This document shows, in pieces, positions 13,340-64,000 of a stretch of DNA of 64,000 nucleotides. The position numbers were made by a program, and so were the translations under genes. The stretch comes from Alphaproteobacteria bacterium. Its GTDB lineage: Bacteria > Pseudomonadota > Alphaproteobacteria > UBA828. Location of the stretch: positions 352,001 through 416,000 of the forward strand of contig CBDCRW010000003.1 in NCBI GenBank assembly GCA_965221125.1. The letters are read 5' to 3'. Numbering within the stretch: the first letter of the stretch is position 1; every line of letters starts with the position of its first letter. The notes beneath the pieces were generated by a model. The model had not been told where the DNA came from, did no database searches, and saw only the letters and a list, made by a program, of their open reading frames with translations.

Positions 13340-14935
13340 TCAGGCCGCGAGGTCCTCGCCGGCGAGGGCGCGGTCGATCAGCGCGACCGTCTCCTTGAGC
13401 CCGTAGAGGGCGATGAAGGAGCCCATGCGGGGGCCCTGGCTCTGGCCAAGCAGGATCTCGTAGAGCGCGCGGAACCAGTCGCGGAGCGACTCGAAGGGAT
13501 GCCGCTTGCCGACCTCGTAGACCTCGGTCTGGATCGCCTCGGCGTCCGCATCCGCCGGCAGCGCCACCAGCGCCGCGCGCAGGTCGTCGAGCGCCGCGCG
13601 CTCCTCCGCCAGCGGCGCGCGGTACGCCTTCGTCGGCTTCACCACGTCGCGGTAGTAGGTGAGCGCGTGGCCCACGAGCGCATCGAGGATGGGCGCGGTC
13701 TCGGGCGCCGCACCGGGCACGTAGCGGCTGATGAAGCCCCAGAGCACCGCCGGGTCCTCCGTGTTGCAGACGCTCGCGAGGTTGAGCAGGACGGCGTAGC
13801 TCAAGCCCGTCTCGGGCGCGGGCGGGTCGCCCGCGTGAATGTGCCAGGCCGGGTTCTCGAGCCGCTTGTCCGGCTCCTGCTCCGGATACTTGGCGAGATG
13901 CGTCAGGTGATCGTCGACGTGGCGGGGGATCACGTCGAAGTAAAGCCGCTTGGCGCGGCGCGGCGCGTTGTACATGAAGAGCGAGAGCGAATCGCGCGGA
14001 CCGTAGGCCAGCCACTCCTCGATGGCGAGGCCGTTGCCGCGCGACTTCGAGATCTTCTCGCCGTTCTCGTCGAGAAAGAGCTCGTAGATGAAGCCGGCAG
14101 GCGGCCTCGACCCGAGCGCGCGGCAGATCTTGCCGGAGAGCTCGACCGAGCTGATGAGGTCCTTGCCCGCCATCTCGTAGTCGACGCCGAGCGCGTGCCA
14201 GCGCATGGCCCAGTCGGCCTTCCACTGCAGCTTGCAGTGGCCGCCGGTCACCGGGACCGTCACGGTCTCGCCGTCCTCGTCCACGTAGCTAACCGTGCCC
14301 GCTTGCGCGTCGCGGGCCGCGATGGGCACCTGCAGCACGCGGCCGGTCTTGGGGCAGAGCGGCAGGAAGGGGCTGTAGGTCGCCTGCCGCTCGGCGCCGA
14401 GCGTCGGCAGGATGATGCGCATGATCTCGTCGTAGTGACGGAGCACGTCCATGAGCGCTGCGTCGAACTCGCCCGAACGGTAGGCCTCGCTCGAACTCTT
14501 GAAGGTGTAGTCGAAGCCGAAGTCGTCGAGGAAGGCGCGGAGCCGCGCGTTGTTGTGCGCCCCGAAACTCTCGTGCGTGCCGAAGGGGTCCGGGATCTGC
14601 GTGAGCGGCTTGCCGAGATGCGCCTCGACCATCGCGCGCCCGGGGATGTTGTCGGGCACCTTCCTGAGCCCGTCCATGTCGTCGGAGAAGGCCACGAGGC
14701 GCGTCGGGATATCGCTGAGCGCGGCGAAGGCCCGGCGCACCATGGTCGTGCGCGCGACCTCGCCGAAGGTGCCGATGTGCGGCAGGCCGGAAGGGCCGTA
14801 GCCGGTCTCGAACAGCGCATAGCCCTTGGCCGGCGTCTTGCCGCCGATACGCTTCAGCAGCGCCGCAGCCTCCTTGAAGGGCCAGGCCTTGGCGTTCCGC
14901 GCCAGCGCGCGCAGGTCGTGTGCGGTGTCGGTCAT
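13340..14935 (-). CDS. lysS: Lysine--tRNA ligase, class I
   Basis: [48 protein letters not shown]. Confidence 0.97.
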
Positions 14936-37955: not shown

Positions 37956-38333
37956 TCAGAAGGCGATACGGCGGACGCCGGCGACCACGTCAAAATGCCG
38001 GTCGTTGCTCAATACAGGGAGACCGTGCTGACGGGCGAGCGCCGCGATCCAGACATCGTTCGACGGTATGGGAGCCCCCATCCGCTTCAATTCCAGGCGT
38101 ATTTCGGCATAGGCGTGGGCCGTCGCCGATGTGACGGCCGCGATTTCGGTAAGCGACAGATAGCGGGAAAGCCACGCCTCATAGCGGTCTCGAAGACGCG
38201 ACTGACGGATGCCGAAGTAGTACTCGCCGAGTACAACACTCGGCACCACCAGGCGGTCGGCCGCGCGCAGCGGGGCTTCGACCGCGACGTGGCCATCCGC
38301 CCACGCAGACACGGCGTTGGTGTCGAGGATCAT
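37956..38333 (-). CDS. vapC: VapC PIN-domain toxin
   Basis: MILDTNA, VLGE, NDVWIAA, SNDRHF. Confidence 0.92.
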   Translation of the reverse strand: MILDTNAVSAWADGHVAVEAPLRAADRLVVPSVVLGEYYFGIRQSRLRDRYEAWLSRYLSLTEIAAVTSATAHAYAEIRLELKRMGAPIPSNDVWIAALARQHGLPVLSNDRHFDVVAGVRRIAF

Positions 38334-38596
38334 GTTACGTCTTCGGGCGAGAGCCGTTCGAACTCGTCCTCAATTAATTCCAGTACCCTGCGGTTCTCCT
38401 CCCGAATATCGGACAGCGCTCCGAAACCGGCCATCCACGGCGGTTCCTCGTCGGCGGCGCTCCCACCCTCTGCGGAGCGCCGAAGTTTCTCCTCAAGCGC
38501 TTCGGTAAAGAACCGTCTCAACGTCATGCCGCGGGCGGCGGCCAGAGCCTTGCTCTGCCGAAACACGGTGTCGGGAAGTTCCACAGTCGTCTTCAT
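38330..38596 (-). CDS. vapB: VapB-type ribbon-helix-helix antitoxin
   Basis: MKTTVELPD..FRQSKALAA..G; overlaps the vapC start. Confidence 0.85.
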   Translation of the reverse strand: MKTTVELPDTVFRQSKALAAARGMTLRRFFTEALEEKLRRSAEGGSAADEEPPWMAGFGALSDIREENRRVLELIEDEFERLSPEDVT

Positions 38597-38807
38597 GTGG
38601 CCATATTCCCATAAATACGGTAGCGCGTCAAGTCGCGATATCATGCCGCCAATATGACGGCCGCCCCGTTCGTCCACCGTTGGCACGGAATTCTATGCGA
38701 AGCCCTGTCATCCCGACTCCCCGGACCATGGTGCGGTGTTGGGTAGCGTACGACTAGGGTACGCTGGAGCACGATAATTCTTTATATCTCAGCAAATTGC
38801 CGTATTC

Positions 38808-39128
38808 CAGTTGGAGGCGCTTCGGGGTGAGAGGACGCTTCGAGAGATTGGCTCGCAGCATCAGGTTCATCCGAACCAGGTGGGCGCTTGGAAGAGCCAG
38901 GGGGTCGCGGGCTTGGTGGAGTTGCTCTCGAAGGGCGCGGAGTGTCGTGCGCGTGGCCATGAGCGCGAGATTCGGGATCTTCACGCCAAGATCGGGGACT
39001 TGTTTGATCGTAGAGCGGGATTTTCTCTCGCGGGTCCCGTCGCTGAGCGGGGCCAAAAGGCGAGTCCCGGGCAAGCAACGAAATTCGATGACGAGGACAT
39101 GGAAAGCCAGTCGTGGTCTGGGGTTTGA
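38808..39128 (+). pseudogene. IS3-family transposase OrfA remnant
   Basis: EALRGERTLREIGSQHQVHPNQVGAWK...IRDLHAKIG resembles the IS3 OrfA HTH and zipper; no OrfB. Confidence 0.65.
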
Positions 39129-39281
39129 TTCGATCCGGTTACGGTACGATGACAGATGGCTCTCTTGATCCTGCGAATGGAGCGAAGAAGCAAGGAATTT
39201 CGTAGGGTTGCGCGTGCCGCCGCCGCATCGGGTCGCGATTCTGACGAAATAAGGGCATGTCGTGACTTCCGGGACGAGCAT

Positions 39282-39440
39282 CTAGCTGAGACGGGTGAAC
39301 TCGGCGTCGGTTAGGAACCGATTCCGCTTGCGCCTGAGGTTCGACGGGATGGACTGGCAGGTGTCATCGCAGCCATCGGGCACCACCATGTCGCAGCCCC
39401 TAGCGAGCTTGTCCATGTTGCTCCGGGTCAGCAGCCGCCA
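39282..39440 (-). pseudogene. Tyrosine integrase fragment
   Basis: C.SI...RRKRNRFLTDAEFTRL resembles the start of a phage integrase catalytic domain; premature stop; adjacent to the att relic. Confidence 0.55.
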
Positions 39441-39510
39441 AGCCCGTTCCATAGGCCTCCGCTGCGCCTGATTGTGCATTTGACCATGCTTACCCGATGC
39501 TTATCCGAAG

Positions 39511-39539
39511 AAAAAGGCTTAGGCGAAATGCCCTAAGCC
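39511..39539 (-). terminator. Intrinsic terminator-like hairpin downstream of the tRNA relic
   Basis: GGCTTAGG/CCTAAGCC 8-bp stem followed by a T5 run on the minus strand. Confidence 0.55.
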
Positions 39540-39550
39540 CTTGAAAACAA

Positions 39551-39595
39551 TGGTATGCCCGCCCGGACTCGAACCAGGCACCCTCTAATTAGAGG
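39551..39595 (-). other. Degenerate tRNA 3'-half (att-site relic, tRNA-Lys-like)
   Basis: TGGTATGCCCGCCCGGACTCGAACCAGGCACCCTCTAATTAGA reverse-complements to a GGTTCGAGTCC T-loop ending in ACCA; no D-arm or 5' half. Confidence 0.6.
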
Positions 39596-39870
39596 ACTCG
39601 ATATTTTCGTTTTGAATCAAGGTATTTTCCACATTCGAGCCACTTTCCCCCCCTGAGTATCACTGACTTATCGTCGAAATGTAAAACAGTTTTCGTGGCT
39701 GATAGAGGGGCAAGAGGGGTCAGAACGACATCCGGCAGACAAGCTCATCGGTGGCGCGTTCGCGATTGTGGTTCGGCGCGCAAGTTGGGCGTCGATCGGC
39801 GTGGTAAGGCTTTGAACTCCGTTAATTCCGAGGGGTCAAACGAAGACGCCGAACATCTATGGACGCCCCC

Positions 39871-40126
39871 GTTGATGCAAGCAGTTCTTTGAACGCCTTG
39901 GAGCATGCGGTCAGGTGCTTACATCTATCCGGCCTGTTGATGCGGCGCGTAACTCTGGCGCCGCTGGCCCGCATGGAGATACGCGGATCGGGTCCATATC
40001 AACAGTGCGAGCTCGAAGGCTCTTTGTTCGGAAGCTGGTTTGCCCGATCCCGTCTCGTTGACCGTTTTGCCCTTGCCCGTCCTCCGTCCTGCCCGCATCC
40101 CCGACGACGTTCCGCGCTTCGCCTTC
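39871..40126 (-). ncRNA. Candidate seekRNA/bridge-RNA region of the IS1111 element
   Basis: ~255-nt non-coding stretch between the transposase stop and the IR, where IS1111-group guide RNAs are encoded; structure not verified. Confidence 0.5.
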
Positions 40127-41149
40127 TCAGGCGGCGACGGGAAGCCGGTAGGTCTCCTTCCTCGTCTCCAGCGCCCACACGATACGCGCCATGCGGTTGG
40201 CCAGGGCCACCGCGACCAGCATCCTCGGCTTGCGCGCCAGCATCCTGGCCAGCCAGGGGTCAGCCGTCTCGCCGCGTCGAATCGCGTGCCTGACAACCGT
40301 CATGGCGCCCGTGATCAGGAGGCGCCTGAGGTCGCGCTGGCCCATCCTCGATATCTTGCCCAGCCTCGGCTTGCCGCCCGTCGTGTGCTGGCGCGGCACG
40401 AGGCCGAGCCAGGCGGAGAAATCGCGCCCGCGCCGGAAGCTCTCCATCGGCGGTGCAAAGGCCTGGAGCGCCATCGCACAGATCGGACCGATCCCGGGGA
40501 TCGTCATGAGCCGCATCGCCTCTTCGTCCTGGCGCGCGCTCGCCTGAAGCGCCTTCCCAAGGCTGTCGATCTTCGCACTGAGCACGGCGATCTGCTCGAG
40601 GAGAAGGCCGGCCAACTCCCGAACCTGCTCCGGCAAGTCGCAACCCGGGGCTTCCAGCGCCACAGCCAGCCGACCGACATGAGCCGGTCCCTTGGGCGCG
40701 ATCACGCCGAACTCCGCCAGGTGGCCCCTCAGCGCGTTGATCGTCTGCGTCCGCTGACGCACCAGAAGATCGCGCGTGCGGAACAACATCGCCCGGGCCT
40801 GCTGATCCTGCGTCTTCACCGCCACCAAGCGCATGCTCGGCCGCTGCGCGGCTTCGCAGATCGCCTCCGCGTCCGCCGCGTCGTTCTTCTGCCGCTTCAC
40901 ATACGGCTTGACGTAGATCGGCGGGATCAACCTCACGTCGTGGCCAAGCTCATGGAACGCCCGGCCCCAGTGGTGTGCACTCGCGCAAGCCTCCATCGCC
41001 ACTTCACAACGCGGCCGAGAGGCCAGAAAGCTCTCAAGCTTCTCCCGGCTCAGCTTCTTGCGGAATGCAACCGACCCGTCTGCCCGAACACCGTGAAGCT
41101 GAAAGCTGCGCTTCGCCAGATCGATCCCGATGATGCTAACCTCTTCCAT
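40127..41149 (-). CDS. IS110 family transposase (DEDD recombinase)
   Basis: IGIDLAK, AMEAC, KNDAADAEAI, TIPGIGP, WLGLVPRQHTTGGK; GGAGG RBS. Confidence 0.96.
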   Translation of the reverse strand: MEEVSIIGIDLAKRSFQLHGVRADGSVAFRKKLSREKLESFLASRPRCEVAMEACASAHHWGRAFHELGHDVRLIPPIYVKPYVKRQKNDAADAEAICEAAQRPSMRLVAVKTQDQQARAMLFRTRDLLVRQRTQTINALRGHLAEFGVIAPKGPAHVGRLAVALEAPGCDLPEQVRELAGLLLEQIAVLSAKIDSLGKALQASARQDEEAMRLMTIPGIGPICAMALQAFAPPMESFRRGRDFSAWLGLVPRQHTTGGKPRLGKISRMGQRDLRRLLITGAMTVVRHAIRRGETADPWLARMLARKPRMLVAVALANRMARIVWALETRKETYRLPVAA

Positions 41150-41268
41150 GGATGCCTCCTCCTTCAGGGGGTTGAAACACAACACCACCTTGGCACATTG
41201 CGATGCCGTCAGGAGGGGGCGTCCATTCCATCAACAATTAGGGGGTCGGGAAACGCCGTGGCGGCCGC

Positions 41269-53049: not shown

Positions 53050-53931
53050 ATGGCGGTCAATCTGGATGAGCTCGATCTCGAGCGGCTCGCCGCCAGGGAG
53101 CGGCGCGCCGGCGCGGGCTCGTCCATAAAATTCGTCTTCGCGGTCTTTATCGGCGCCATCTGGATCGTTCCCTTCTATTACCTCATCGTCTCGATCTTCA
53201 AGACGACCGAGCAGTACTCGCTCAATCATCCGCTCTCGCTGCCGACCGGCGTCGCGCCCTTTCTCGCCAACGCCATCGACGCATGGGTGACGGCGAAGAT
53301 GGGCGCCGGCCTGCTGAACTCGACGCTCTACGGCCTCGTGGGCGCGGGACTTGCCGTCTTCTTCGCGGCGATGGCCGCCTACGGCCTCTCGCGCATCGAT
53401 TTCAAGCGGAAGAATTTCTGGTTCATGCTGATCTTCGCAGGCACGGTGTTCCCGTTCCAGATGTACCTGATCCCGCTCTTCTTCGGCTACCAGAAGGCCG
53501 GCATCATCAACACCCACTTCGGCATGCTGCTCGTCTACACGGCGATCTGCATTCCCTTTCCGACCCTCGTGCTGAAGAACTACATGAACGGCCTGTCGCG
53601 GGAGATGGACGAGGCGGCGCGCATGGACGGCGCCAGGGAATTCACCGTCTTCTGGCGCATCGTGCTGCCGAACTGCAAGGGGCCGATAACCGCGACCTTC
53701 CTCCTGCAATTCACCTGGATCTGGAACGACCTCCTGTTCTCCACGGTGCTCGCGAACCGGACCGAGACCCGCTCGATCATGAACGCTCTCCAGGTCTTCC
53801 AGGGGAGCTACTCGTCGACCGGGCCTAACGTGGTGCTGACGGCCACGATCATCGCGACCGTTCCCTCGGTTCTGCTGTTCTTCCTGCTGCGACGTCACTT
53901 CATGGAGGGCATGCGAATCTCGTCGCTCTGA
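53050..53931 (+). CDS. Carbohydrate ABC permease (MalG-like)
   Basis: DEAARMDGA loop, WNDLL. Confidence 0.92.
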   Translation: MAVNLDELDLERLAARERRAGAGSSIKFVFAVFIGAIWIVPFYYLIVSIFKTTEQYSLNHPLSLPTGVAPFLANAIDAWVTAKMGAGLLNSTLYGLVGAGLAVFFAAMAAYGLSRIDFKRKNFWFMLIFAGTVFPFQMYLIPLFFGYQKAGIINTHFGMLLVYTAICIPFPTLVLKNYMNGLSREMDEAARMDGAREFTVFWRIVLPNCKGPITATFLLQFTWIWNDLLFSTVLANRTETRSIMNALQVFQGSYSSTGPNVVLTATIIATVPSVLLFFLLRRHFMEGMRISSL

Positions 53932-54088
53932 ACTGAGCAGTTCTGGCGGACGCACTGTCGCATGAGGAGCTTCAAAGGGGACGAGAAAAGCAAACACGCG
54001 ATGGCAGAATTGCCGGCGCTTTCCCCGGTCGCGCGGCCGGAACACCCTAGCCCGGATTTCCAGCCAATGTCATGGGCGGCGCGGCCCG

Positions 54089-54111
54089 ATTGTTCGAAAT
54101 ATCCAGACAAT
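54089..54111. promoter_or_regulatory. Putative LysR operator ATTGTTC-N9-AGACAAT upstream of the CoA transferase
   Basis: Inverted repeat (CCGATTGT...ACAATCGG) with the same half-site and spacing as the box at 56356-56378. Confidence 0.55.
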
Positions 54112-54191
54112 CGGTTCGGGAAACGGCAGTATGCGTCCGCAGGCAGAGCACCTATCGTCGGCTGCGGACAATCTCGGCAAGAGGAACACGC

Positions 54192-55421
54192 ATGAGCGGG
54201 CCGTTCGAGGGCGTGAAGATCGTCGACCTGACCACCATGCTGTCCGGCCCCTGGGCGACCTCGATCCTGGGCGACCAGGGCGCCGACGTGATCAAGGTCG
54301 AGGTGCCGGGCAAGGGCGATCACGTGCGCGCGCTCGGCAACCAGCAGGGCGGCATGTCGTCGATGTTCCTGAACATCAACCGCAACAAGCGCTCGATCAC
54401 GCTCGACCTCAAGAAGCCGGAAGGCCGCGACCTCCTGCTCAGGATCGCCGGGACGGCCGACGTCTTTGTCCAGAACTTCCGCCCCGGCGTCGTCGAGCGT
54501 CTGGGCGTCGCTTACGAGGACGTGGCGAAGGTCAATCCGCGCATCGTCTACATGTCGCTCTCCGGCTTCGGCGAGAAGGGGCCGTGGGTCCACAAGCCGG
54601 TCTACGACCCCGTGATCCAGGCGCTCTCCGGGCTCACCACGATCCAGGCAGGGTCGGACGAGGAGCGTCCGCGGCTGGTCCGCACCGTGCTGCCCGACAA
54701 GTTCTCCGCCATGACTGCCTCGCAGGCCATCGGCGCCGCGCTCTTCCGGCGGGAGCGGACGGGCGCGGGCCAGCACGTTCGGCTCTCCATGCTGGATGCG
54801 ATCCTGCAGTTCCTCTGGGTCTCGGACTATGGCGCCCAGACCTTTCCCGACGCCGAGGTCTCCAACCAGGCGGCGGCGAGCTTCATCGACCTGATCTACG
54901 AGACGAAGGACGGCCACATGACCGTCGCCGTCATGTCCGACCGCGAATGGAACGGCCTCTGCAAGGCGCTGGAGCGGGAGGAGTGGCTCGAGGACGAGCG
55001 TTTCGCTACGCCGTCCGCCCGCGACGCGCACGTCGACGAGCGGCTCGAGATGACCCAGCAGGTGCTGCTGGAGCGGACGACCGACGAATGGATGGGTATT
55101 CTCGAAGCCTGCGGCGTGCCCTGCGCGCCGGCGCTCACGCGGAACGGCGTGATCGAGCATCCGCAGGTGGCGGCAAGCGAGGTCCTGGTCGAGATCGAGC
55201 ATCCCGCCGCCGGGCGGCTGCGCCAGACCCGCAATGCGGCCCGCTTCCAGGGCTCGCCGGCGGCCCATCGGCTGGGCGCCCCGCAGCTCGGCGAGCATTG
55301 CACGGAAATCCTGTCCGCCCTCGGCCTGAGCGAGGCGGACATCGTCGCGCTGCACAAGAGCGGCGTCATCGGCGGCGAGAACGATCCGGCCCTGCGCGCC
55401 TATTCGGCGGCGGCCGAGTAG
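54192..55421 (+). CDS. CaiB/BaiF family III CoA-transferase (candidate IsoG counterpart)
   Basis: GADVIKVE, NRNKRSITLDLK, NFRPG, SGFG, YDPVIQA, APQLGEH. Confidence 0.88.
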   Translation: MSGPFEGVKIVDLTTMLSGPWATSILGDQGADVIKVEVPGKGDHVRALGNQQGGMSSMFLNINRNKRSITLDLKKPEGRDLLLRIAGTADVFVQNFRPGVVERLGVAYEDVAKVNPRIVYMSLSGFGEKGPWVHKPVYDPVIQALSGLTTIQAGSDEERPRLVRTVLPDKFSAMTASQAIGAALFRRERTGAGQHVRLSMLDAILQFLWVSDYGAQTFPDAEVSNQAAASFIDLIYETKDGHMTVAVMSDREWNGLCKALEREEWLEDERFATPSARDAHVDERLEMTQQVLLERTTDEWMGILEACGVPCAPALTRNGVIEHPQVAASEVLVEIEHPAAGRLRQTRNAARFQGSPAAHRLGAPQLGEHCTEILSALGLSEADIVALHKSGVIGGENDPALRAYSAAAE

Positions 55422-55448
55422 GACCCCGTGACGCCCGGGATATCCGCC

Positions 55449-56357
55449 TCAACCCAGGTTGAAGGCGGACTTCGCGTCCTCCTTGAGGAAATCGAGGAAG
55501 GCGCGGAGCCTCGGCGGCATGCGGCGGCGATGCACGTAGGTCGCGGAGATGGCGCCCGGCCGGTGCCGCCAGCCCGGCAGCAGGCGGACGATGCGGCCGC
55601 TCTCGATCTCGCCCCGGACGGCGTAGTCCGGCAGCAGCGCGGCGCCCGCCCCGTCGAGCACGAACTGCTTGGCGGTCATGCCCGAGTTCGTGCGGATCGA
55701 GGGGTCGACCTTGACGCTGGCATCGTCGTGGTCGGCGTCGGTCAGCGTGAGCCGGTCGAAGTCCGGCATGACGGTGAGCGTGATCCACGGCTTGTGGGTG
55801 AGATCCAGCGGCGAGCGGATCGGCCCGAAGGTCTTGAGATAGCCGGGCGACGCGCAGGGGATCATCTCGAAGTCGCAGATCTTGACGGCGTGGAGCTCGG
55901 TGGATTTCAGCCAGCCGATGCGGAAGGCGATGTCGTAGCCGCCTTCGATGATGTTGGTGATGCTGTCCTGCACGTCGAGCTCGATGTCGACCTTGGGGTG
56001 CCGCTCGCGGAAGCGCTTGACCGCGCCGGTGAGGTAGACCACGGCGAGGTTCTGGGAGGCCGTCATGCGGATGATGCCGGACGGCAGTTCCTGCTGCGTC
56101 TCCAGCCTTTCCACGGCGGTGCCGACGATGTCGATCATCCGCTCGGCGGCGTCTGCGAGCGTATGGCCCTCGTGGGTGATCGCCACCGAGCGGGTCGAGC
56201 GGTTGAGCAGGCGCACGTTGAGCTCGCGTTCGAGGTCGCTCACGTGCTGGCTGACCACGGACTTGCTGAGGTTGAGCGCCTGCGCGGCGCGGGTGAAGTT
56301 GCCGGTCTCGACGACCTTCTGAAACACGCTGATCCGGTAGAGATGCTTCAGATCCAT
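55449..56357 (-). CDS. LysR-type transcriptional regulator (CrgA/DmlR-like)
   Basis: FTRAAQALNLSKSVVSQHVSDLE..L.VRLLNRSTR; divergent from the iso operon. Confidence 0.95.
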   Translation of the reverse strand: MDLKHLYRISVFQKVVETGNFTRAAQALNLSKSVVSQHVSDLERELNVRLLNRSTRSVAITHEGHTLADAAERMIDIVGTAVERLETQQELPSGIIRMTASQNLAVVYLTGAVKRFRERHPKVDIELDVQDSITNIIEGGYDIAFRIGWLKSTELHAVKICDFEMIPCASPGYLKTFGPIRSPLDLTHKPWITLTVMPDFDRLTLTDADHDDASVKVDPSIRTNSGMTAKQFVLDGAGAALLPDYAVRGEIESGRIVRLLPGWRHRPGAISATYVHRRRMPPRLRAFLDFLKEDAKSAFNLG

Positions 56358-56378
56358 TGTTCGGCTCAACGGAACAAT
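56356..56378. promoter_or_regulatory. Putative LysR operator ATTGTTC-N9-GAACAAT
   Basis: Perfect 7-bp inverted repeat overlapping the LysR start codon in the divergent region. Confidence 0.65.
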
Positions 56379-56469
56379 CAATTTGGGAAGTTGCTATAGC
56401 GGCGATACCGGGCGGTGCCTAGGGTAAAGCGAGTTTCGGTATCGGCCGACATGGGGGGTGAACGGCTGA

Positions 56470-57150
56470 ATGGCGAGCTATCTGGTCATCGGCGCGGATC
56501 GCGGAATCGGCCTCTCTCTCTGCCGGCAGCTCGCCGCGCGGGGCGAGACGGTGGTCTCGGTCTGCCTGGGCATGGGCGAGGCCTACAACGGCGCGGGCGT
56601 TTCCGTGATCCCCAACGTGGACGTGACCTCGGCGGGCGCCGTGGCCGCCATGGCCGGGGCGCTGGAAGCCCGCGGCGAGAAGATCGATTGCCTCATTCAT
56701 GTCGCCGGCGTGCTCGGCCTCGATGAGCTGGGCAGGATCGACTACGACGACGTCCGCCGGCAGATCGAGATCAACACCATCGGCCCGTTGCGCGCGATCG
56801 AGGCGGCGCTCCCCCATCTGGCTGCGGACGCCAAGGTGGGCGTGATCACCAGCCGCGTCGGCTCGCTCTCGGACAACGGCTCCGGTCAGATGTACGCCTA
56901 CCGCGCGTCCAAGGCGGGCGCCAACATGGTGACCCTCAACCTCCACCATGACCTCTCGGGCCGCGGCATCGCCGTGGCGGCGCTGCACCCCGGCATGGTG
57001 GCGACCGATCTCACCAAGGATATTCCGGGAGACTTCGACTACATCACGCCCGACGAGGCGGCCGCAGGGCTGATCCGGCGGATGGACGCCCTCAGCCTCG
57101 AGACATCGGGCCGGTTCTGGCATGCCAACGGCGAAGAGCTGGCGTGGTGA
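56470..57150 (+). CDS. isoH: Short SDR dehydrogenase, IsoH-like (glutathione-conjugate dehydrogenase)
   Basis: 226 aa, GADRGIG, YAYRASK, LHPGMV; directly upstream of isoI-isoA. Confidence 0.7.
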   Translation: MASYLVIGADRGIGLSLCRQLAARGETVVSVCLGMGEAYNGAGVSVIPNVDVTSAGAVAAMAGALEARGEKIDCLIHVAGVLGLDELGRIDYDDVRRQIEINTIGPLRAIEAALPHLAADAKVGVITSRVGSLSDNGSGQMYAYRASKAGANMVTLNLHHDLSGRGIAVAALHPGMVATDLTKDIPGDFDYITPDEAAAGLIRRMDALSLETSGRFWHANGEELAW

Positions 57151-57226
57151 CGGCCATGGCGACGGCCATGGCGACGGCATCGCTTGGAATGCCTGACGAA
57201 CGAACGCGCAGAGCGGAGGGAAAACC

Positions 57227-57940
57227 ATGATCAAGGTCTACGGGTATCTGCCAGGCTGGACGGTGCCGTGCATCAGCCCCTACGTCACCAAGGCCATGTA
57301 CTACATGAAGATGGCGGGGATCGAGCACGAGTTCGTCAACCAGGACCTGACGAGCCTCGACCGGGATACGCCCCACGGCAAGCTGCCGATGATCGAGGAC
57401 GGCGACGAGAAGGTCGCGGATTCCACGGCCATCATCAACTACCTCAAGGGCAAGTACGGCGACCCGCTGGATGGCGGCGCGTCCGCCGCCGAGCAGGCGG
57501 ACATGCACGCCTGGAACCGCCTGATCGACGAGCACCTCTACTGGACCGCCGTGATCCAGCCGCGCTGGCGCGAGACGCCGAACTTCGAGATCTACCTGCG
57601 GGTCATCGCCGGCACCGACGAGATTCCGCCGCCGCTCCGCGCCTTCGCCGACGACTTCCGCCACCGCATCGTGATGGAGTTCATGGAGGGCGGCTGGGGC
57701 CGCATGTCGGGCGACGTGATCTACGGCCGCGCCCGCGAGGACATCGACGCGATCGACGCCCGCATCGGCGGCGACGGCTTCCTCATGGGCGCCGAGCCCC
57801 GCTCGATCGACGCGGCGGTCGCCTCGATCCTGCGTCACATCATCGACACGCCCTTCGACTTCGACACCAAGGACTACGCGGCCGGCAAGCCGAACCTGAC
57901 CGGCTACCTGGGCCGCATGAAGGCGCGTTTCGACGTCTAG
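57227..57940 (+). CDS. isoI: Glutathione S-transferase, IsoI-like (epoxide conjugating)
   Basis: MIKVYGYLPGW...ISPYVTK, QDL..LD.D.PHGKLP, DS..II.YLK.K.GD.LD, RLIDEHLYW..IQ.RW, matching IsoI as I recall it. Confidence 0.85.
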   Translation: MIKVYGYLPGWTVPCISPYVTKAMYYMKMAGIEHEFVNQDLTSLDRDTPHGKLPMIEDGDEKVADSTAIINYLKGKYGDPLDGGASAAEQADMHAWNRLIDEHLYWTAVIQPRWRETPNFEIYLRVIAGTDEIPPPLRAFADDFRHRIVMEFMEGGWGRMSGDVIYGRAREDIDAIDARIGGDGFLMGAEPRSIDAAVASILRHIIDTPFDFDTKDYAAGKPNLTGYLGRMKARFDV

Positions 57941-58028
57941 CCGCTTTGCCTCGCGCGGGCCGGGGCGATCCTGCCCGCGCACCGCACCCGACGGCCGCAC
58001 GGCCGATGACAAGGGGGAGAACTGAACG

Positions 58029-59522
58029 ATGGCGTTACTGAACCGTGACGACTGGTACGACATCGCCCGCGACGTCGACTGGGAGCTGAGCTACGTCGAC
58101 CGCGAGGAGGCCTTCCCCGAGGAATGGGTCGGCGCCAAGGGCATCCCGCTCGATGCCTGGGAGGACTGGGACGAGCCCTACCGCGTCTCCTACCGCGAAT
58201 ACGTGATGGTGCAGCGCGAGAAGGAGGCCGGCGTCAGCGCCGTCCGCGAGGCCATGCAGCGGGCCAAGCTCTACAGCAAGCTCGACCCGGGGCACCAAGC
58301 CTCGTCGCACCTGCACATGGGCACGACCTGCATGCTCGAGCAGATGGCGGTGACAATGCAGAGCCACTTCAGCCGCTTCGCGCCAAGCCCTCGCTGGCGC
58401 AGCATGGGTGCCTTCGGAATGCTCGACGAGATCCGGCACGCCCAGCTCGATATGCGCTTCAGCCACGACCTGCTGAACGAGGATCCCCGCTTCGACTGGT
58501 GCCAGAAGGGATATCACACCAACGAGTGGGGCGTGCTGGCCGTCCGCAACTTCTTCGACGACGTGATGATCAATGCCGATTGCGTGGAGGCGGCGCTCGC
58601 GACATCGCTGACGGTCGAGCACGGCTTCACCAACATCCAGTTCATTGCCATGGCGTCGGACGCCATGGAGGCGGGCGACGTCAACTTCTCGAACCTGCTG
58701 TCCAGCATTCAGACCGATGAGTCACGCCATGCCCAGCTCGGGTTCCCGACACTGGACGTCGTCATGAAGCACGATCCGAAGCGGGCCCAGCAGATTCTGG
58801 ATGTGTCGTTCTGGCGCACCTTCCGCCTGTTCCAGACGCTGACCGGCACGTCGATGGACTACTACACGCCGCTCGCCAAGCGGAAGATGTCGTTCAAGGA
58901 GTTCATGCTCGAGTGGATCGTCAAGCACCATGAGCGGATCCTGCGCGACTACGGGCTGGAGAAGCCCTGGTACTGGCCCCAGTTCGAGGTCGCCCTGGAG
59001 CACGGGCACCATTCCATGCACATCGGCACCTGGTTTTGGCGGCCGACCCTCTTCTGGAAGCCCAATGCCGGCGTCTCGAAGGCCGAGCGCAAGTGGCTCA
59101 ACGAGAAGTATCCGAGCTGGGAGGACAGCTGGGGCTATCTCTGGGACGAGATCATCAAGAACGTCAACGACGGCAACATGGAGAAGACCTTCCCCGAGAC
59201 GCTGCCGTCGCTCTGCAACATCACCCAGCTGCCTCTCGGCTCCGGCATCGACCGCCATCACCTCGAATGCCACCAAGTCGTCTACAAGGGCCGCGTCTAC
59301 CAATTCGACAGCGAGATGTCGAAGTGGATCTTCGAGCTGGAGCCGGAGCGCTATGCCGGCCACATGAACGTCGTCGACCGCTTCATCGCCGGCATGATCC
59401 AGCCGATGAACCTCGCGGGCGGGCTGGAGTACATGAGCATCACGCCCGAGGTGATGGGCGACGACGTGTACGGCTACACCTGGGCCGAGGACTATAAGGA
59501 GATGCCGGCGGCGGCCGAGTAG
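58029..59522 (+). CDS. isoA: Soluble diiron monooxygenase alpha subunit, isoprene/alkene monooxygenase clade
   Basis: LLNRDDWYD, SHLHMGTTCM, DEIRH, SLTVEHGFTN, DESRH, GTWFWRPTLFWKPNAGVS, C-terminal YHS-like domain. Confidence 0.92.
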   Translation: MALLNRDDWYDIARDVDWELSYVDREEAFPEEWVGAKGIPLDAWEDWDEPYRVSYREYVMVQREKEAGVSAVREAMQRAKLYSKLDPGHQASSHLHMGTTCMLEQMAVTMQSHFSRFAPSPRWRSMGAFGMLDEIRHAQLDMRFSHDLLNEDPRFDWCQKGYHTNEWGVLAVRNFFDDVMINADCVEAALATSLTVEHGFTNIQFIAMASDAMEAGDVNFSNLLSSIQTDESRHAQLGFPTLDVVMKHDPKRAQQILDVSFWRTFRLFQTLTGTSMDYYTPLAKRKMSFKEFMLEWIVKHHERILRDYGLEKPWYWPQFEVALEHGHHSMHIGTWFWRPTLFWKPNAGVSKAERKWLNEKYPSWEDSWGYLWDEIIKNVNDGNMEKTFPETLPSLCNITQLPLGSGIDRHHLECHQVVYKGRVYQFDSEMSKWIFELEPERYAGHMNVVDRFIAGMIQPMNLAGGLEYMSITPEVMGDDVYGYTWAEDYKEMPAAAE

Positions 59523-59550
59523 CCCGGCACCCCAGCGCGGAGGATAGAAG

Positions 59551-59817
59551 ATGGCTCTCTTCCCGATCACCGGCCGCGTTGTCGGCGACCACATTCCGCA
59601 CCTCGTGGCGGTCGATACCGAGGACACCTTCGACCAGATCGCGGAGAAGGCGGCGGTGCACAGCGTGGGCCGGCGCCTGCCGGACAATCCCGATGCCACC
59701 GGCTTCGAGGTCCTGTTCAACGGCGAGGTTCTGCCGGGCGACCAGAAGCTCGAGGAGCTGATGGCAACCACGGAGATCCTGCCGCTTCAATGGTTCGACA
59801 TCCGATGGAAGGAGTAG
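59551..59817 (+). CDS. isoB: Monooxygenase gamma subunit (IsoB/TmoB-like)
   Basis: MALFPI...GD...HLVAVDTEDT.DQIAEK.A.HSVGRR. Confidence 0.9.
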   Translation: MALFPITGRVVGDHIPHLVAVDTEDTFDQIAEKAAVHSVGRRLPDNPDATGFEVLFNGEVLPGDQKLEELMATTEILPLQWFDIRWKE

Positions 59818-60167
59818 CGGCGGTCGCTTCGGCAGCGGCCGACGGCATCGATTACGTCGATCTCTGTGCCGAGGACGAGCTCTGGGATGGCGACATGGAT
59901 GCCTTCGACGTGGGCGAGCACGAAGTGCTGCTGGTCCGCTACGGCGGCCGGTACTTCGCCTACGACGCCATCTGCCCGCACCAGAGCACGTCGCTGGCGG
60001 ACGGCGAGTTGACGGAGGACGGCGTCATCATCTGTCAGGCCCATCTCTGGGAATTTCGGGCCGACGGCGGCCAGGGGATCAACCCGGCCAACGAGTGCCT
60101 GAAGAGGTTTCCCGTGAAGGTGGAGGACGGCCGCGTCTTCGTGGGCTCCGAGCCCGACGCCGGATAG
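59805..60167 (+). CDS. isoC: Rieske ferredoxin (IsoC/TmoC-like)
   Basis: CPHQ and CQAHLWEF Rieske motifs, GINP; start approximate. Confidence 0.9.
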   Translation: MEGVAAVASAAADGIDYVDLCAEDELWDGDMDAFDVGEHEVLLVRYGGRYFAYDAICPHQSTSLADGELTEDGVIICQAHLWEFRADGGQGINPANECLKRFPVKVEDGRVFVGSEPDAG

Positions 60168-60188
60168 CGCGAGAAAGGAACGAGGATC

Positions 60189-60494
60189 ATGAGTTCCGAT
60201 GAATTCACGACGATGGACGACAATCTGGTCGGCCCGGTCGTCCGCTCGGGCGATCTCGCCGACGCGGTGATCGATGCGGCGATCGAGGACAATCCGGATC
60301 GCGAGGTGTTGGTCTTCGAACGCGAGGACTACGTCCGCATTCATGCGGAGCGCAATTGCGTGGTGACCAGGGCGTCCATCGAGAAGCACCTGGGCCGCGC
60401 CTTCAACATGGCCATGCTCGAGATCGAGATGCCGTCCTTCAAGGGCCGCATGCAATCGAGCACGGAGCAGATGCGCTGGTACTACGTCAACTGA
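60189..60494 (+). CDS. isoD: Monooxygenase effector/coupling protein (IsoD/TmoD, MmoB-DmpM family)
   Basis: VGPV, DNPDREV, YVRI, LEIEMPSFKGR. Confidence 0.9.
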   Translation: MSSDEFTTMDDNLVGPVVRSGDLADAVIDAAIEDNPDREVLVFEREDYVRIHAERNCVVTRASIEKHLGRAFNMAMLEIEMPSFKGRMQSSTEQMRWYYVN

Positions 60495-60529
60495 CGGTCC
60501 AGGCAGCAAGAGAGACACCGGGGGGAATC

Positions 60530-61552
60530 ATGGCCGAAGGAACAGCACGGCGGCGCGCGAGGAAGAAGACCTGGAGCGCGCTGGGCGACGTGACCGGCAA
60601 GCCCAGCGACTACGAAATCGTCACCCACGGCTTGAACCACACGATGGGAGAAACGCCGCTGGAAATGGGGCCGGAGGTCCACGGCAACGTGTGGCTCAAG
60701 AAGTACCGGGACGACATCTCGATCAAGGTCGGGAACTGGGATTCCTTCCGCGATCCGGACCAGGTCACCTACCAGAGCTACGTCAAGGCGCAGGACGTGC
60801 AGGAAGCCTACATCGACGAGCTTCTCGCCTCCTTCACCGCAGAAGATACAAGCGACGGGCGGCTCTCCAACGAGTGCCTGCAGCTCCTGCTTACGGCGAT
60901 GACGCCGTGCCGCTACCTGGGGCACGTGCAGCAGATGCTCTCGGCCTACATCCAGCAGGTCGCACCGTCCTCCTATGTCGCCAACTGCGGGTCGTTCCAG
61001 GTCGCCGACCAGCTTCGCCGCGTGCAGCGCGTCGCCTACCGCACCCGCCAGCTCGGCACCGAACACCCTTCGCACGGCTTCGGCAGCAGCGAACGGGTGG
61101 CCTGGCAGGATGCGCCCGGATGGCAGCCCGTCCGCGAGACCATGGAGACGCTGCTCGTCGTCTACGAGTGGGACGAAGCGCTGGTCGGGTTCAACCTGGT
61201 CGTCCGTCCGGTCTGCGACAACCTGTTCGTCAACCAGCTCTCTCGCGCGGCGCGGCTCGCCGGCGACGAGCTGGACGCCCTGCTGCTGGAGAACCTCTAT
61301 CAGGATTGCGAGCGGCACAACCGCTGGACCGTCGCGGCCATGAACTACATCGTCGACCAGGATGCCGCGAACCGGGATGCCCTGCGCGACTTGGCCGCCA
61401 AGTGGAACGGCCGCGCGGAGGCGATCATCGCGTCGGGCTCGGAGATGATCGCGGCGAACGTCGACGGCCTCTCGGCCCAGGACATCGCCGACGACGTGCT
61501 CGCGCGCTGGGCCGAGCTGAAGTGGCAGGCCGGGCTCAGCGGCGATGCCTGA
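60530..61552 (+). CDS. isoE: Monooxygenase beta subunit (IsoE/TmoE-like)
   Basis: KTWS....KPSDYEIVT, W..FRDPD, QVADQLRRVQR, W. Confidence 0.9.
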   Translation: MAEGTARRRARKKTWSALGDVTGKPSDYEIVTHGLNHTMGETPLEMGPEVHGNVWLKKYRDDISIKVGNWDSFRDPDQVTYQSYVKAQDVQEAYIDELLASFTAEDTSDGRLSNECLQLLLTAMTPCRYLGHVQQMLSAYIQQVAPSSYVANCGSFQVADQLRRVQRVAYRTRQLGTEHPSHGFGSSERVAWQDAPGWQPVRETMETLLVVYEWDEALVGFNLVVRPVCDNLFVNQLSRAARLAGDELDALLLENLYQDCERHNRWTVAAMNYIVDQDAANRDALRDLAAKWNGRAEAIIASGSEMIAANVDGLSAQDIADDVLARWAELKWQAGLSGDA

Positions 61553-61590
61553 GGGCGCTCCCGGCGGCCGCGCCTCGCGCGCGGCCGCCC

Positions 61591-62769
61591 ATGGCTGAGA
61601 GCGGCACCGCCGATCTCCCCTGGGACGAGCAATCCGAGCGCAACTTCATCGGCGGCGAATGGAGGTTCACGCGCGAAGGCTATTCCTTCGACATCTACGA
61701 TCCCGCCGACAGCACCGTCATCGCCGCCGTCCCGCTCTCCACCCACCGCGATGTCGCCCAGGCAATGGCGGCGGCCCGCGACGCCGTCGGCCCGTGGGCG
61801 GCGTTGCCCGGCGCCCGGCGTGCGGCGGTCGTGGACGGCGCGCTGGCGAGCCTGGCCGAGCGGATCGACAGTGTCGCCGCACTCGCCTGCCGCGATACGG
61901 GGCTGCCGGCGCATGCCGCGCGGGAGGACATCCTGGCGGCGATCCGCGCGGCGCGGGCGCACCTGGCGGGCGGCGCCGGGCAGCCGGAACACGACGCCGC
62001 GCCTGGCGTGATCGGGCAGATCCTGTCGTGGAGCGGCCCGCTCACACTCTGCATCCGGACCCTGGCCCCGGACCTCGCGGCGGGCAACACGGCGGTGGTC
62101 CATCCCTCGATCCAGGCGCCGCTCTCTCTGGTGTTCCTGGCGGACGCGCTGAGCCGTGCCGGCGCGCCGCCCGGCGTCTTCAATCTGGTTCAGGGCACCG
62201 GGGCCGACGCCGGCATGGCGCTGGCCCGCCAGCCCGACCTGAAGCGGCTCGATTTCCAGGGCAGCCGCGAGACGGCGGCCATGGCCGCGCTCTCGCCTGA
62301 GCGGAACGGCATTTCCGTGCATCGCCATCTGCGAACCATCGTCCATCGCCGCATCGACGCCGGCGATGCGCTCGAGCCGGCGGTCCGCGACATCGCCGAC
62401 GCCGCGTTCTGCCACGCGGCGCGTGCGGGCTACGGCGGCCTCCTGGTCGATGTCGCCGCCTCCCGTCTCGGTGAGTTCTCGGACGCGATCGCGGCGGCGT
62501 TCGAGGCCGGCCGATACGTCGAAGGACTGCGCGGCTCGCACACGATCGCGCCCTTCGTTGCCGAGAAATACCGCACCGCCTGCGAGCATCTGAAGAAGGG
62601 CCATCTCGCGGCCGGCGCGGAGCGGCTCTGCACCGCGCCGCAGCCGAGCCCTAGAACCTACCGCATGGGATGGTTCGAGCGGCCCTGCGTGCTCCACGAC
62701 CCCACGCACCGCATCTCCCTCGATCCCGACCTGGCCAACGGACCGCTTGTCCTCGTGCGTAGCGGCTAA
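61591..62769 (+). CDS. Aldehyde dehydrogenase-fold protein, degenerate or probably non-catalytic
   Basis: NFIGGEW, LAAGNTAVVHPS, PPGVFNLVQG retained; PWN changed to SWS, no ELGG, no GQxC. Confidence 0.75.
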   Translation: MAESGTADLPWDEQSERNFIGGEWRFTREGYSFDIYDPADSTVIAAVPLSTHRDVAQAMAAARDAVGPWAALPGARRAAVVDGALASLAERIDSVAALACRDTGLPAHAAREDILAAIRAARAHLAGGAGQPEHDAAPGVIGQILSWSGPLTLCIRTLAPDLAAGNTAVVHPSIQAPLSLVFLADALSRAGAPPGVFNLVQGTGADAGMALARQPDLKRLDFQGSRETAAMAALSPERNGISVHRHLRTIVHRRIDAGDALEPAVRDIADAAFCHAARAGYGGLLVDVAASRLGEFSDAIAAAFEAGRYVEGLRGSHTIAPFVAEKYRTACEHLKKGHLAAGAERLCTAPQPSPRTYRMGWFERPCVLHDPTHRISLDPDLANGPLVLVRSG

Positions 62770-63040
62770 CGCTTCGTCACTGCGGACACGACATCCGCCG
62801 ACGCAGTACTTGGCTGAACGCAGCGATGGCTCGCGAAGGGGCGCAGCACCTCGATCATGCCGAGGCGTACCGGACGGCCCGCCTGGAGATATGATGGACA
62901 AGCCGCTGAGCGCCTTGCCCAAGTCCCCACGGGCGCAACAGCAGCAGCTGGAAGATCGATTCAAAAGGAGCCTGGCGGCCTGAACATCAACCGGAATTCG
63001 CCTTAGCCCGGCCGTCAGAGGGTCAATTTTCCACGCTTAA

Positions 63041-64000
63041 CCCGACCTATTCATGGACTGCCTTGCACTTGATGCTCGGTTGATTGGGCGCGTCGGGGCC
63101 TGACGCGGTTTGGCGTCGGGAACTGAGGATGGTCGTTATCGGGTTGATGGTTTATGGAGCCTGGGTGATTGGGGCACGCCGCCCCGTCGCTCATGGGCCT
63201 GCTGCGGCGAGGCGGCCTGCGAGCAGGCGGAAGAGGGCGGCGTCGGGGCAGGCCGAGGCGAAGTGGATGCGGATGCGGGTGGCCTTCTCGATGACGCGGG
63301 CACCGATCTTGAGGAGGCGCAGCCTGAGGGTTGCAAACTCTGCACGGGCGAGCGGCGCGGCGCGGGGAATGGCGTCGCGCAGCGCGAGCATGAGCCAGTA
63401 GGCTGCGGTGTGGAGGACCAGCCTGAGCTGATTGGCGAGCGGGCTCTGGCAGGAGGTGCGGTCCGAGGCGAGCTGGCCCTTGTGCATCTTGATCAGGTTC
63501 TCGGCCTGGCCGCGGGCGCAGTAGATGTCTTCGTAGAGATGGCGGGGCTCGCCCTTGAGTGAGGTGACGACATAGCGGGCATCGAAGCCGCGGGTGCTCG
63601 CCTCGAGCCGGGCGACGACCCGGCGTTCGCAGCTCCAGGAGCGGGCGGCGTAGTCGAAGGCGGTGAAGCTGCGCATCCTGTCTGCGCCGGCCTTGGCGCG
63701 GCGCACCTTGAGATCGTCGGCCATCTCGTATGCGAGCGCGTGCAGCGCGCGGTTGCCCGCGAGGCCGAAGATGTAGTCGACCCCGTTCTCCTCGCACCAG
63801 GCCATGGCTTCCGGGCGGCCGTAGTGGCTGTCTCCGCGGAAGACGATCCGGGTGTGCGGCCAGTGGCGGCGGATGCGGCGGACCAGATGCTTGATGAGGG
63901 TGCGGACCTCAGGGCCCGACGGCGTCTTGCCCGGGCGCAGGAGGACCGCCACCGGCTTGCCGCTTTCCACATGGTAGACGTGGACGGGCAGGAAGCAGCG
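63041..64000 (-). mobile_element. IS1380-family element (runs beyond the window)
   Basis: Terminal CCCGACCTATTCAT preceded by TTAA; contains the transposase. Confidence 0.85.
63191..64000 (-). CDS. IS1380-family transposase (5' end outside the window)
   Basis: LRPG, RGDSHY, YCARGQAENLIKMHK, SDRTSC, ANQLRL, LRLRLLKIGA. Confidence 0.93.
   Translation of the reverse strand, partial: RCFLPVHVYHVESGKPVAVLLRPGKTPSGPEVRTLIKHLVRRIRRHWPHTRIVFRGDSHYGRPEAMAWCEENGVDYIFGLAGNRALHALAYEMADDLKVRRAKAGADRMRSFTAFDYAARSWSCERRVVARLEASTRGFDARYVVTSLKGEPRHLYEDIYCARGQAENLIKMHKGQLASDRTSCQSPLANQLRLVLHTAAYWLMLALRDAIPRAAPLARAEFATLRLRLLKIGARVIEKATRIRIHFASACPDAALFRLLAGRLAAAGP

Follow-up and report, generated by a model that had tools for sequence, protein, structure and literature searches.

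Gene content and limits of the iso cassette

We analysed a 64,000-nt stretch of an alphaproteobacterial contig, referred to as the window, which carries a block of ten genes related to the isoprene (iso) degradation clusters of other bacteria. The genome to which it belongs is called its own genome (G000; contigs C1 and C3-C7 are named in the results). Because the GC content of the region is high (0.64-0.69), the window contains many overlapping spurious open reading frames (ORFs), and the gene set was picked out by Pfam and NCBIfam profile searches of the window ORFs. The limits of the whole conserved block, the iso cassette (54048-62769), come from DNA homology. A blastn comparison with the locus of the nearest relative (L004, about 91% identity) aligned C3:406048-414764 of the own genome, which is 54048-62764 of the window, with positions 6024-14839 of L004. 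The original prediction, made from the letters of the window alone, had placed an isoprene-monooxygenase-type cluster at 54192-62769. This range nearly equals the conserved block, but its last 1.2 kb (61591-62769) are a separate gene of the aldehyde dehydrogenase (ALDH) superfamily, which the prediction had not mentioned.

The first gene, isoG (54192-55421, plus strand), encodes a family III CoA-transferase of 409 aa (Pfam CoA_transf_3, 379 bits); its frame is open from 54072, and the likely start is the ATG at 54192, preceded by AGAGGA, which resembles a ribosome-binding site. A LysR-type regulator gene on the minus strand (55449-56381; Pfam HTH_1 and LysR_substrate) is divergent from isoH (56470-57150, plus strand, as are all genes that follow in the block), which encodes a short-chain dehydrogenase/reductase (SDR) of the 1-hydroxy-2-glutathionyl-2-methyl-3-butene dehydrogenase type (NCBIfam NF049951). 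The epoxide-glutathione S-transferase (GST) gene isoI (57227-57940; NCBIfam NF049950, the IsoI equivalog) is followed by the monooxygenase genes: isoA for the hydroxylase alpha subunit with the diiron site (58029-59522; Pfam Phenol_Hydrox and YHS), isoB for the gamma subunit of the TmoB family (59551-59817; Pfam TmoB, 82.9 bits), isoC for a Rieske [2Fe-2S] ferredoxin with a CPH...CxxH motif (59790-60167; Pfam Rieske), isoD for the effector or coupling protein (60189-60494; Pfam MmoB_DmpM, 89 bits) and isoE for the hydroxylase beta subunit of 340 aa (60530-61552; Pfam Phenol_Hydrox, 200 bits). The last gene (61591-62769) encodes a short-form ALDH-superfamily protein of 392 aa (Pfam Aldedh). All nine genes that the original prediction had listed, from the CoA-transferase and LysR to the beta subunit, are present and intact, and the two diiron motifs that it had pointed out are complete (DEIRH at 58425-58439 and DESRH at 58716-58730).

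Taken together, the gene content suggests that the cassette probably encodes a functional, streamlined, glutathione-dependent pathway of the iso type, whose substrate would be a small alkene and most likely isoprene. In such a pathway the alkene would be epoxidised by the hydroxylase IsoABE, assisted by a Rieske ferredoxin (IsoC) and an effector (IsoD), and NADH would supply electrons to the monooxygenase by way of an IsoF-family reductase whose gene lies in trans (G000:C6:532082-533080). IsoI would open the epoxide with glutathione, IsoH would oxidise the glutathione conjugate to a carboxylic acid, and IsoG would make the CoA thioester, from which carbon may be assimilated. For the known pathway, PMC9804861 describes that IsoI forms the conjugate HGMB, that IsoH oxidises HGMB to GMBA, and that IsoG is a predicted CoA-transferase. 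The divergent LysR probably activates the operon when the epoxide is present, which is how regulation in Variovorax is described in the same source; there the inducer in strain WS11 is epoxyisoprene (PMC9804861).

Relatives of the hydroxylase and of the glutathione enzymes

A scan of GTDB representatives yielded 56 related alpha loci among 75 pattern matches. The window alpha is 97% identical to that of L004, 88-89% to those of L005-L007 and 79-80% to those of L008 and L009, all from metagenome-assembled genomes (MAGs) titled Rhodospirillales (L004), Rhodospirillaceae or Alphaproteobacteria (L005-L007) and Alphaproteobacteria (L008, L009). Among proven degraders, identities were 77% with Variovorax WS11, 76% with Ramlibacter WS9, 75% with Mycobacterium AT1, 74% with Gordonia OPL2 and 73% with Rhodococcus WS4. 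The best alpha matches in PLSDB were XamoA of Xanthobacter Py2 (76.6%) and the 'isoA' of Mycobacterium ELW1 (71%), with toluene-type alphas at 50% or below. The other subunits are 67% (B), 70% (C), 66% (D) and 55% (E) identical to the Xamo proteins.

Two alpha trees were built, a quick one of 54 rows and a careful one of 33 rows chosen from the 54 (21 were dropped for run time), and both agree. The IsoA/XamoA group, including the window alpha, is separated from the toluene-type outgroup with 100/100 support, as the original prediction had expected. An alternative would be that the cassette encodes an aromatic (toluene or benzene) monooxygenase with the GST and SDR as unrelated neighbours, and the best solved relatives in a sequence search of the PDB are indeed toluene/o-xylene monooxygenase and toluene-4-monooxygenase (E 1e-172); no IsoA or XamoA structure was among the matches of that search. 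However, toluene-type alphas are only 47-50% identical to the window alpha and lie across a branch of length 1.28 with 100/100 support, their pocket helices differ throughout, and IsoH and IsoI accompany this alpha clade at 34 of 48 loci. We regard the aromatic reading as highly improbable, and it is refuted as far as phylogeny can refute it.

Within the IsoA/XamoA group, the window alpha falls in an alphaproteobacterial clade of eight rows (L008, L009, XamoA, L007, L005, L006, L004 and the window; 100/99 support), in which XamoA joins the five-row group of the window at 97/93. Holding the seven glutathione-type rows together costs 7.8 lnL in an approximately unbiased (AU) test (p = 0.247), so that XamoA as sister to all seven is not rejected, and we claim XamoA only as a member of the clade. 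The other seven members all carry IsoG, IsoH and IsoI.

The iron ligands E104, E134, H137, E197, E231 and H234 are all present in the window alpha, with residue numbers that we take to be those of toluene-4-monooxygenase. In the four segments around these ligands the window alpha agrees with the consensus sequence shared by proven isoprene enzymes (…GTTCM.EQ…, …TVEHGF…), and XamoA departs from this consensus at four pocket-helix positions (GTITM, RNLFDD, TLEHGF). One substitution, V103L (58335-58337), is unique to the window alpha and lies beside ligand E104; all 20 other aligned sequences, L004 included, have valine.

These comparisons bear on a second alternative, in which the same chemistry acts on another substrate, such as propene, ethene, butadiene, isobutene, a haloalkene or a host- or algal-derived terpene fragment, with the glutathione genes acting on the epoxide of that compound. 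The propene enzyme XamoA and the alpha of ELW1, which we take to be an isobutene degrader, fall in the same group, so that the clade does not single out one substrate. The unique V103L, the score of IsoH just below its equivalog cut-off (see below) and the missing isoJ and aldH1 point the same way. Against this, the window alpha matches the isoprene enzymes at all four pocket-helix positions where XamoA departs, and IsoI scores above the cut-off of the isoprene-epoxide GST equivalog. We therefore consider another alkene unlikely, if well short of implausible, and retain isoprene as the most likely substrate of the pathway.

The glutathione enzymes were compared with models and with isolates. 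IsoI reached 334.9 bits over the full length of NF049950 (cut-off 300), and IsoH gave a full-length match of 347.8 bits to NF049951 (cut-off 350). Identities to the Variovorax WS11 counterparts were 66% for IsoG (over 397 aa), 65% for IsoH and 63% for IsoI, which bears out the earlier assignment of the CoA-transferase, SDR and GST as IsoG, IsoH and IsoI relatives; with its score above the equivalog cut-off, the GST can be called an IsoI orthologue. NCBIfam holds no IsoA, IsoG or IsoJ model, and WS11 control proteins matched no specific family there (WS11 IsoG matched generic CoA-transferase models only), so membership of these three families is judged by pairwise identity alone. The own genome encodes glutathione biosynthesis, with gshA (TIGR01436, 634.9 bits, cut-off 463) and gshB (TIGR01380, 405.7 bits, cut-off 299). 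No coenzyme M (CoM) lyase was found in the window, and the best match of Py2 XecA in the own genome was just 30% identical. A second IsoG-like CoA-transferase is encoded at G000:C6:503830-505014 (L071 5830-7014), 64% identical to that of the window and 62% to WS11 IsoG; it lies directly upstream of a carboxyltransferase gene (PF01039), a possible downstream acyl-CoA step.

The described systems differ from the cassette in several ways. The cluster on the megaplasmid of Variovorax WS11 (L013) shares IsoG, IsoH and IsoI, IsoA-E, a neighbouring LysR (41%) and the handling of the epoxide by glutathione, but it has isoJ, aldH1 and isoF in cis in the order LysR(−)-isoGHIJ-aldH-isoABCDEF and no short ALDH-like gene downstream. 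XamoABCDEF of Xanthobacter autotrophicus Py2 (pXAUT01, L001) is the closest characterised hydroxylase and also has a short ALDH-like gene downstream; unlike the window, which has glutathione genes and no CoM lyase, it has xamoF in cis followed by CoM-pathway genes (2-hydroxypropyl-CoM lyase), with no IsoG, IsoH or IsoI within 9 kb. The actinomycetotal degraders Rhodococcus WS4 (L026), Gordonia OPL2 (L021) and Mycobacterium AT1 (L055) share the alpha (73-75%), IsoG, IsoH and IsoI, and an ALDH-like gene after the monooxygenase genes, but have isoJ, aldH1 and isoF in cis and an IsoI that is just 47-48% identical. The styrene pathway of Gordonia rubripertincta CWB2 uses a flavin styrene monooxygenase and not a soluble diiron monooxygenase (SDIMO). 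Its styGHIJ genes can be likened to the cassette by description only, as a mechanistically similar handling of the epoxide by a GST, a dehydrogenase and a CoA-transferase (PMC9804861). Actinomycetotal iso clusters are described as having MarR-type rather than LysR-type regulators and gshAB in the cluster (PMC12917321).

The window LysR is 41% identical to the LysR adjoining isoG in WS11 and 78-95% identical to those of L004-L007. In the LysR/isoH divergent promoter, the motif GAACAATCNATTTGGGAANTTGCTATAGC (56372-56400) is conserved at 27 of 29 positions in five aligned loci, and the remaining intergenic DNA diverges or has insertions. The motif is a candidate operator. A promoter and terminator scan of 53800-63200 gave 0 promoter-like and 2 terminator-like sites, below the shuffled expectation, and was uninformative.

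The Pfam Aldedh match of the ALDH-like protein covers only profile positions 7-374 of 461. The protein is 53% identical to Xaut_4863, encoded downstream of xamoF in Py2, and a short or divergent ALDH-like gene lies downstream of the monooxygenase genes in clusters of both the CoM type (Py2) and the glutathione type (L001 13596-14759; after isoF in L002, L020, L021, L026, L038 and L055). When 12 ALDH-like members were aligned with one true ALDH, WS11 AldH1 (MAFFT, 13 rows), none of the 12 kept the catalytic Cys or the glutamate of ELGG, and the alphaproteobacterial forms also lack the C-terminal 90 or so residues. The product of 61591-62769 is probably not a catalytic aldehyde dehydrogenase; an accessory role without catalysis is possible, and the protein may be the counterpart of 'AldH_2' of Rhodococcus AD45, mentioned in PMC9804861.

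Missing genes and candidate electron donors

Cluster layouts were compared by tblastn of the window proteins, together with WS11 and Py2 proteins, against all loci. At the 48 loci with an alpha at least 65% identical, IsoH and IsoI were both present at 34, and among those 34 IsoJ was found at 26, AldH1 at 28, IsoE at 33 and IsoF at 22. Eleven loci had IsoH, IsoI and IsoE but no IsoF; one of them, L035, is cut by a contig end and has a partial isoF. With L035 left out, 10 of the 32 glutathione-type loci with enough flank lack isoF in cis, namely L004-L007 of the window's clade, L012, L016, L017 and L044 in betaproteobacterial MAGs, and L027 and L036 in Pseudomonadales MAGs. This shows that a dedicated reductase is dispensable in cis. 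In L027 and L036, isoJ and aldH1 are missing as well, and isoE is immediately followed by the ALDH-like gene, as in the window.

Searches of the window block with the WS11 and Py2 proteins found no isoF, isoJ or aldH1, and isoG lies behind the LysR gene, so that the non-canonical layout first read from the sequence holds against the other clusters as far as isoJ, isoF and isoG are concerned. The order isoG-LysR(−)-isoH-isoI-isoABCDE-ALDH-like is common to L004-L007 and in part to L059. In L005-L007 an AldH1-type gene (53-54% identical to that of WS11) stands between isoG and LysR; it is absent from the window and L004, and the best matches elsewhere in the own genome are 32-35% identical. Both isoF and the canonical order LysR(−)-isoG are retained in L008 and L009. 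An 'IsoJ' match of L004 was rejected, being a flank gene outside the block that maps to own contig C5. The proven degraders analysed in the literature, which come from soil, leaves, freshwater or estuaries, all have isoA-F and isoG-J (11 of 11; PMC12917321), and isoABCDEF together are given as a trait of all known isoprene degraders (PMC6286570, PMC12917321). The cluster is different from every described one in its lack of isoF, isoJ and aldH1 in cis, its gene order and its habitat.

In WS11, isoG, isoJ and aldH are each described as essential for growth on isoprene, and isoG, isoJ and aldH mutants given pyruvate still consume isoprene (PMC9804861). Four YfcG-type GSTs elsewhere in the own genome are 40-47% identical to WS11 IsoJ, which matches the same NCBIfam model. 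One of these GSTs could stand in for IsoJ; alternatively, the cell may use the pathway for co-oxidation or detoxification and not for growth.

The deletion of isoF in the window's clade is directly documented by L005 and L006, where frameshifted IsoF/XamoF remnants of the last 100 or so residues lie at 13620-13920 (E 3e-10 and 5e-14 in a small database). The gap between isoE and the ALDH-like gene is 440 nt in L005 and L006 and 38 nt in the window, with nothing significant left in the latter.

We then looked for the reductase elsewhere. A XamoF query gave one match in the own genome (C6:532115-533074, 50% identity), which belongs to a gene at G000:C6:532082-533080 (L060 10082-11080) for a protein of 332 aa with Fer2, FAD_binding_6 and NAD_binding_1 domains. 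It is the sole PF00175 (FNR-type) match in the own genome, and its identity is 49-50% with XamoF and 53-55% with the IsoF encoded in the L008 cluster. A reductase tree of 33 rows puts it inside the IsoF/XamoF group of 29 rows (SH-aLRT 96), with a thin outgroup of one toluene-type reductase and three paralogues. A 91% identical orthologue occurs in the same context in G001, the genome of the nearest relative. An alpha/beta-hydrolase gene (G000:C6:531166-532077; L060 9166-10077) ends 5 nt upstream on the same strand, and the hydrolase-reductase pair is conserved in the nearest relative (L072).

No IsoF-type match was found in G002-G004, the genomes of L005, L006 and L007, where the best hit (E 1.2e-4) covered the ferredoxin part only and came from a 321-aa frame whose Fer2 match follows its NAD match; G004 had no PF00175 match at all. 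A search near the L005 and L007 cassettes turned up a CoxSML-type molybdenum hydroxylase, a TetR regulator and transporters, but no reductase. PF14759 is the C-terminal domain of glutathione-reductase-type ferredoxin reductases. Its distribution is complementary to that of the IsoF-type reductase, with none in G000 and G001 and one each in G002, G003 and G004. These genes are stand-alone Pyr_redox_2/Reductase_C genes of 408-435 aa (L079 5814-7121; L080 6760-7986) that adjoin a phosphorylase gene and have no other oxygenase adjacent. We take the complementary pattern over five genomes as a lead, not as a result. If it is true, the ferredoxin would be fed by an IsoF-type enzyme in two genomes and by an orphan glutathione-reductase-type ferredoxin reductase in three, a non-orthologous reductase replacement that is not described for this enzyme group.

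Selection, mobility and occurrence in sponges

The loss of three genes raises a further alternative, that the cassette is a decaying relic in which the monooxygenase became inactive after the loss of isoF, isoJ and aldH1 and the genes persist by inertia. The frameshifted isoF remnants in L005 and L006 and the three relatives without any IsoF-type reductase would fit this, as would the IS-rich and rearranged state of the own genome, with 12 copies of the insertion sequence (IS) that flanks the block and a second SDIMO spread over two contigs. However, none of the ten frames is disrupted in the window, L004 or L007, and dN/dS of the ten genes was 0.00-0.28 against L004, 0.14-0.43 against L007 and 0.06-0.18 against L005. 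These ratios, at three levels of divergence all after the loss of isoF, indicate purifying selection on all ten genes in lineages none of which has isoF in cis. The block was also retained while it moved between three genomic contexts, and contigs from RNA libraries cover it (see below). A relic is improbable on this evidence, which favours a functional pathway.

In the window the cassette sits between an ABC transporter and the IS (63033-64000, minus strand), which runs off the window and encodes a DDE_Tnp_1_4 transposase from 63191 (PF13701, 329.8 bits). The two flanks of L004 map to C5 of the own genome (258-270 kb), and the flank of L059 maps to C5 at 207-210 kb. Because these are separate sites of C5, the cassette occupies three contexts in three related genomes. 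The IS copies begin at about 63026-63041 of the window; the 12 copies in all are 99.5-100% identical and lie on C1, C3, C4, C6 and C7, and these shared copies argue that C3, with the cassette, and C6, with the reductase, belong to one genome. No repeats or att-like motifs were seen by eye at the block junctions in the window, L004 and L059. A repeat of about 270 bp (L004 18598-18865) has at least 11 copies in the own genome.

Part of the window was found in 20 sequencing runs from 12 studies, of which the four best-matching runs were set aside as possibly the window's own source. In six runs labelled 'sponge metagenome', which come from three studies, 0.32-0.48 of the sampled 31-mers are present. 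The shares in metatranscriptome runs are 0.21-0.22 (two runs labelled 'marine metagenome') and 0.07 (one labelled 'sponge metagenome'); for the small-share runs X19 and X20 the 31-mer share was not used for habitat, and X19 was used only as aligned to the window. With the nearest MAGs all from Rhodospirillales, Rhodospirillaceae or Alphaproteobacteria, the sponge runs bear out the predicted host-associated alphaproteobacterium.

Contigs from RNA libraries cover iso genes with 90-99% likeness in all three RNA runs (two studies). They include contigs of 2092 nt (57720-59804, 90 differences), 1051 nt (57067-58122) and 1428 nt (58593-60023, 71 differences). Because the block lies elsewhere in relatives, the uncovered parts and the zero depth of the flanks carry no information, and the contigs cannot rank expression.

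Isoprene emissions are comparable in amount to those of methane, and the marine biological sink is described as poorly understood (PMC6286570). A 2025 study reported rate constants of 15-33 per hour for the removal of isoprene by three sponge species, which exceeds removal in seawater by orders of magnitude; neither a mechanism nor iso genes are discussed there (PMC12756903). This reported removal also speaks for isoprene rather than another alkene as the substrate. A literature search pairing iso, isoprene or alkene monooxygenase with sponge or symbiont, which did not extend to supplementary files, found no paper that links them.

Several points weigh against a working isoprene pathway. Electron supply depends on a presumed partner in trans since isoF is deleted, and no IsoF-type reductase is present anywhere in the genomes of three relatives that share the cassette. 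The block lacks isoJ and aldH1, without which WS11 is described as unable to grow on isoprene (PMC9804861). IsoH falls 2 bits short of its equivalog cut-off, and the closest characterised alpha, XamoA, is a propene enzyme, with ELW1 also in the IsoA group. The RNA-library contigs do not prove transcription and give neither strand nor level. The assembly of the own genome is estimated to be 92% complete with 5.8% contamination.

With these points in mind, we put forward tentatively a broader reading, which we regard as possible rather than likely. A mobile 8.7-kb iso cassette in sponge-associated Rhodospirillales, without a dedicated reductase, isoJ or aldH1, selected and transcribed in the host, might be the enzymatic basis of isoprene removal by sponges and an unrecognised marine isoprene sink. 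Its Rieske ferredoxin might be fed by whatever reductase the genome offers, and the CoM-linked Xanthobacter enzyme might be an offshoot of a glutathione-type alphaproteobacterial clade. The cassette offers a concrete, testable candidate organism and gene set for sponge isoprene uptake. Glutathione-type and CoM-type alkene pathways cannot be told apart by the alpha marker alone, which matters for isoA-based surveys.

Two further features lie outside the cassette. An IS110-type transposase gene (40127-41188 of the window) stands beside a stretch of low GC content (0.588 at 38001-40000). The second SDIMO of the own genome is of the toluene type, with an alpha that is 43% identical and genes scattered over two contigs. 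Its alpha, Rieske ferredoxin and effector genes lie on C7:253201-255777 (L069), followed by a BolA gene, and no reductase is near the genes of this second SDIMO; its beta-like subunit is encoded alone on C6:288805-289971 (L070), beside a thiolase gene.

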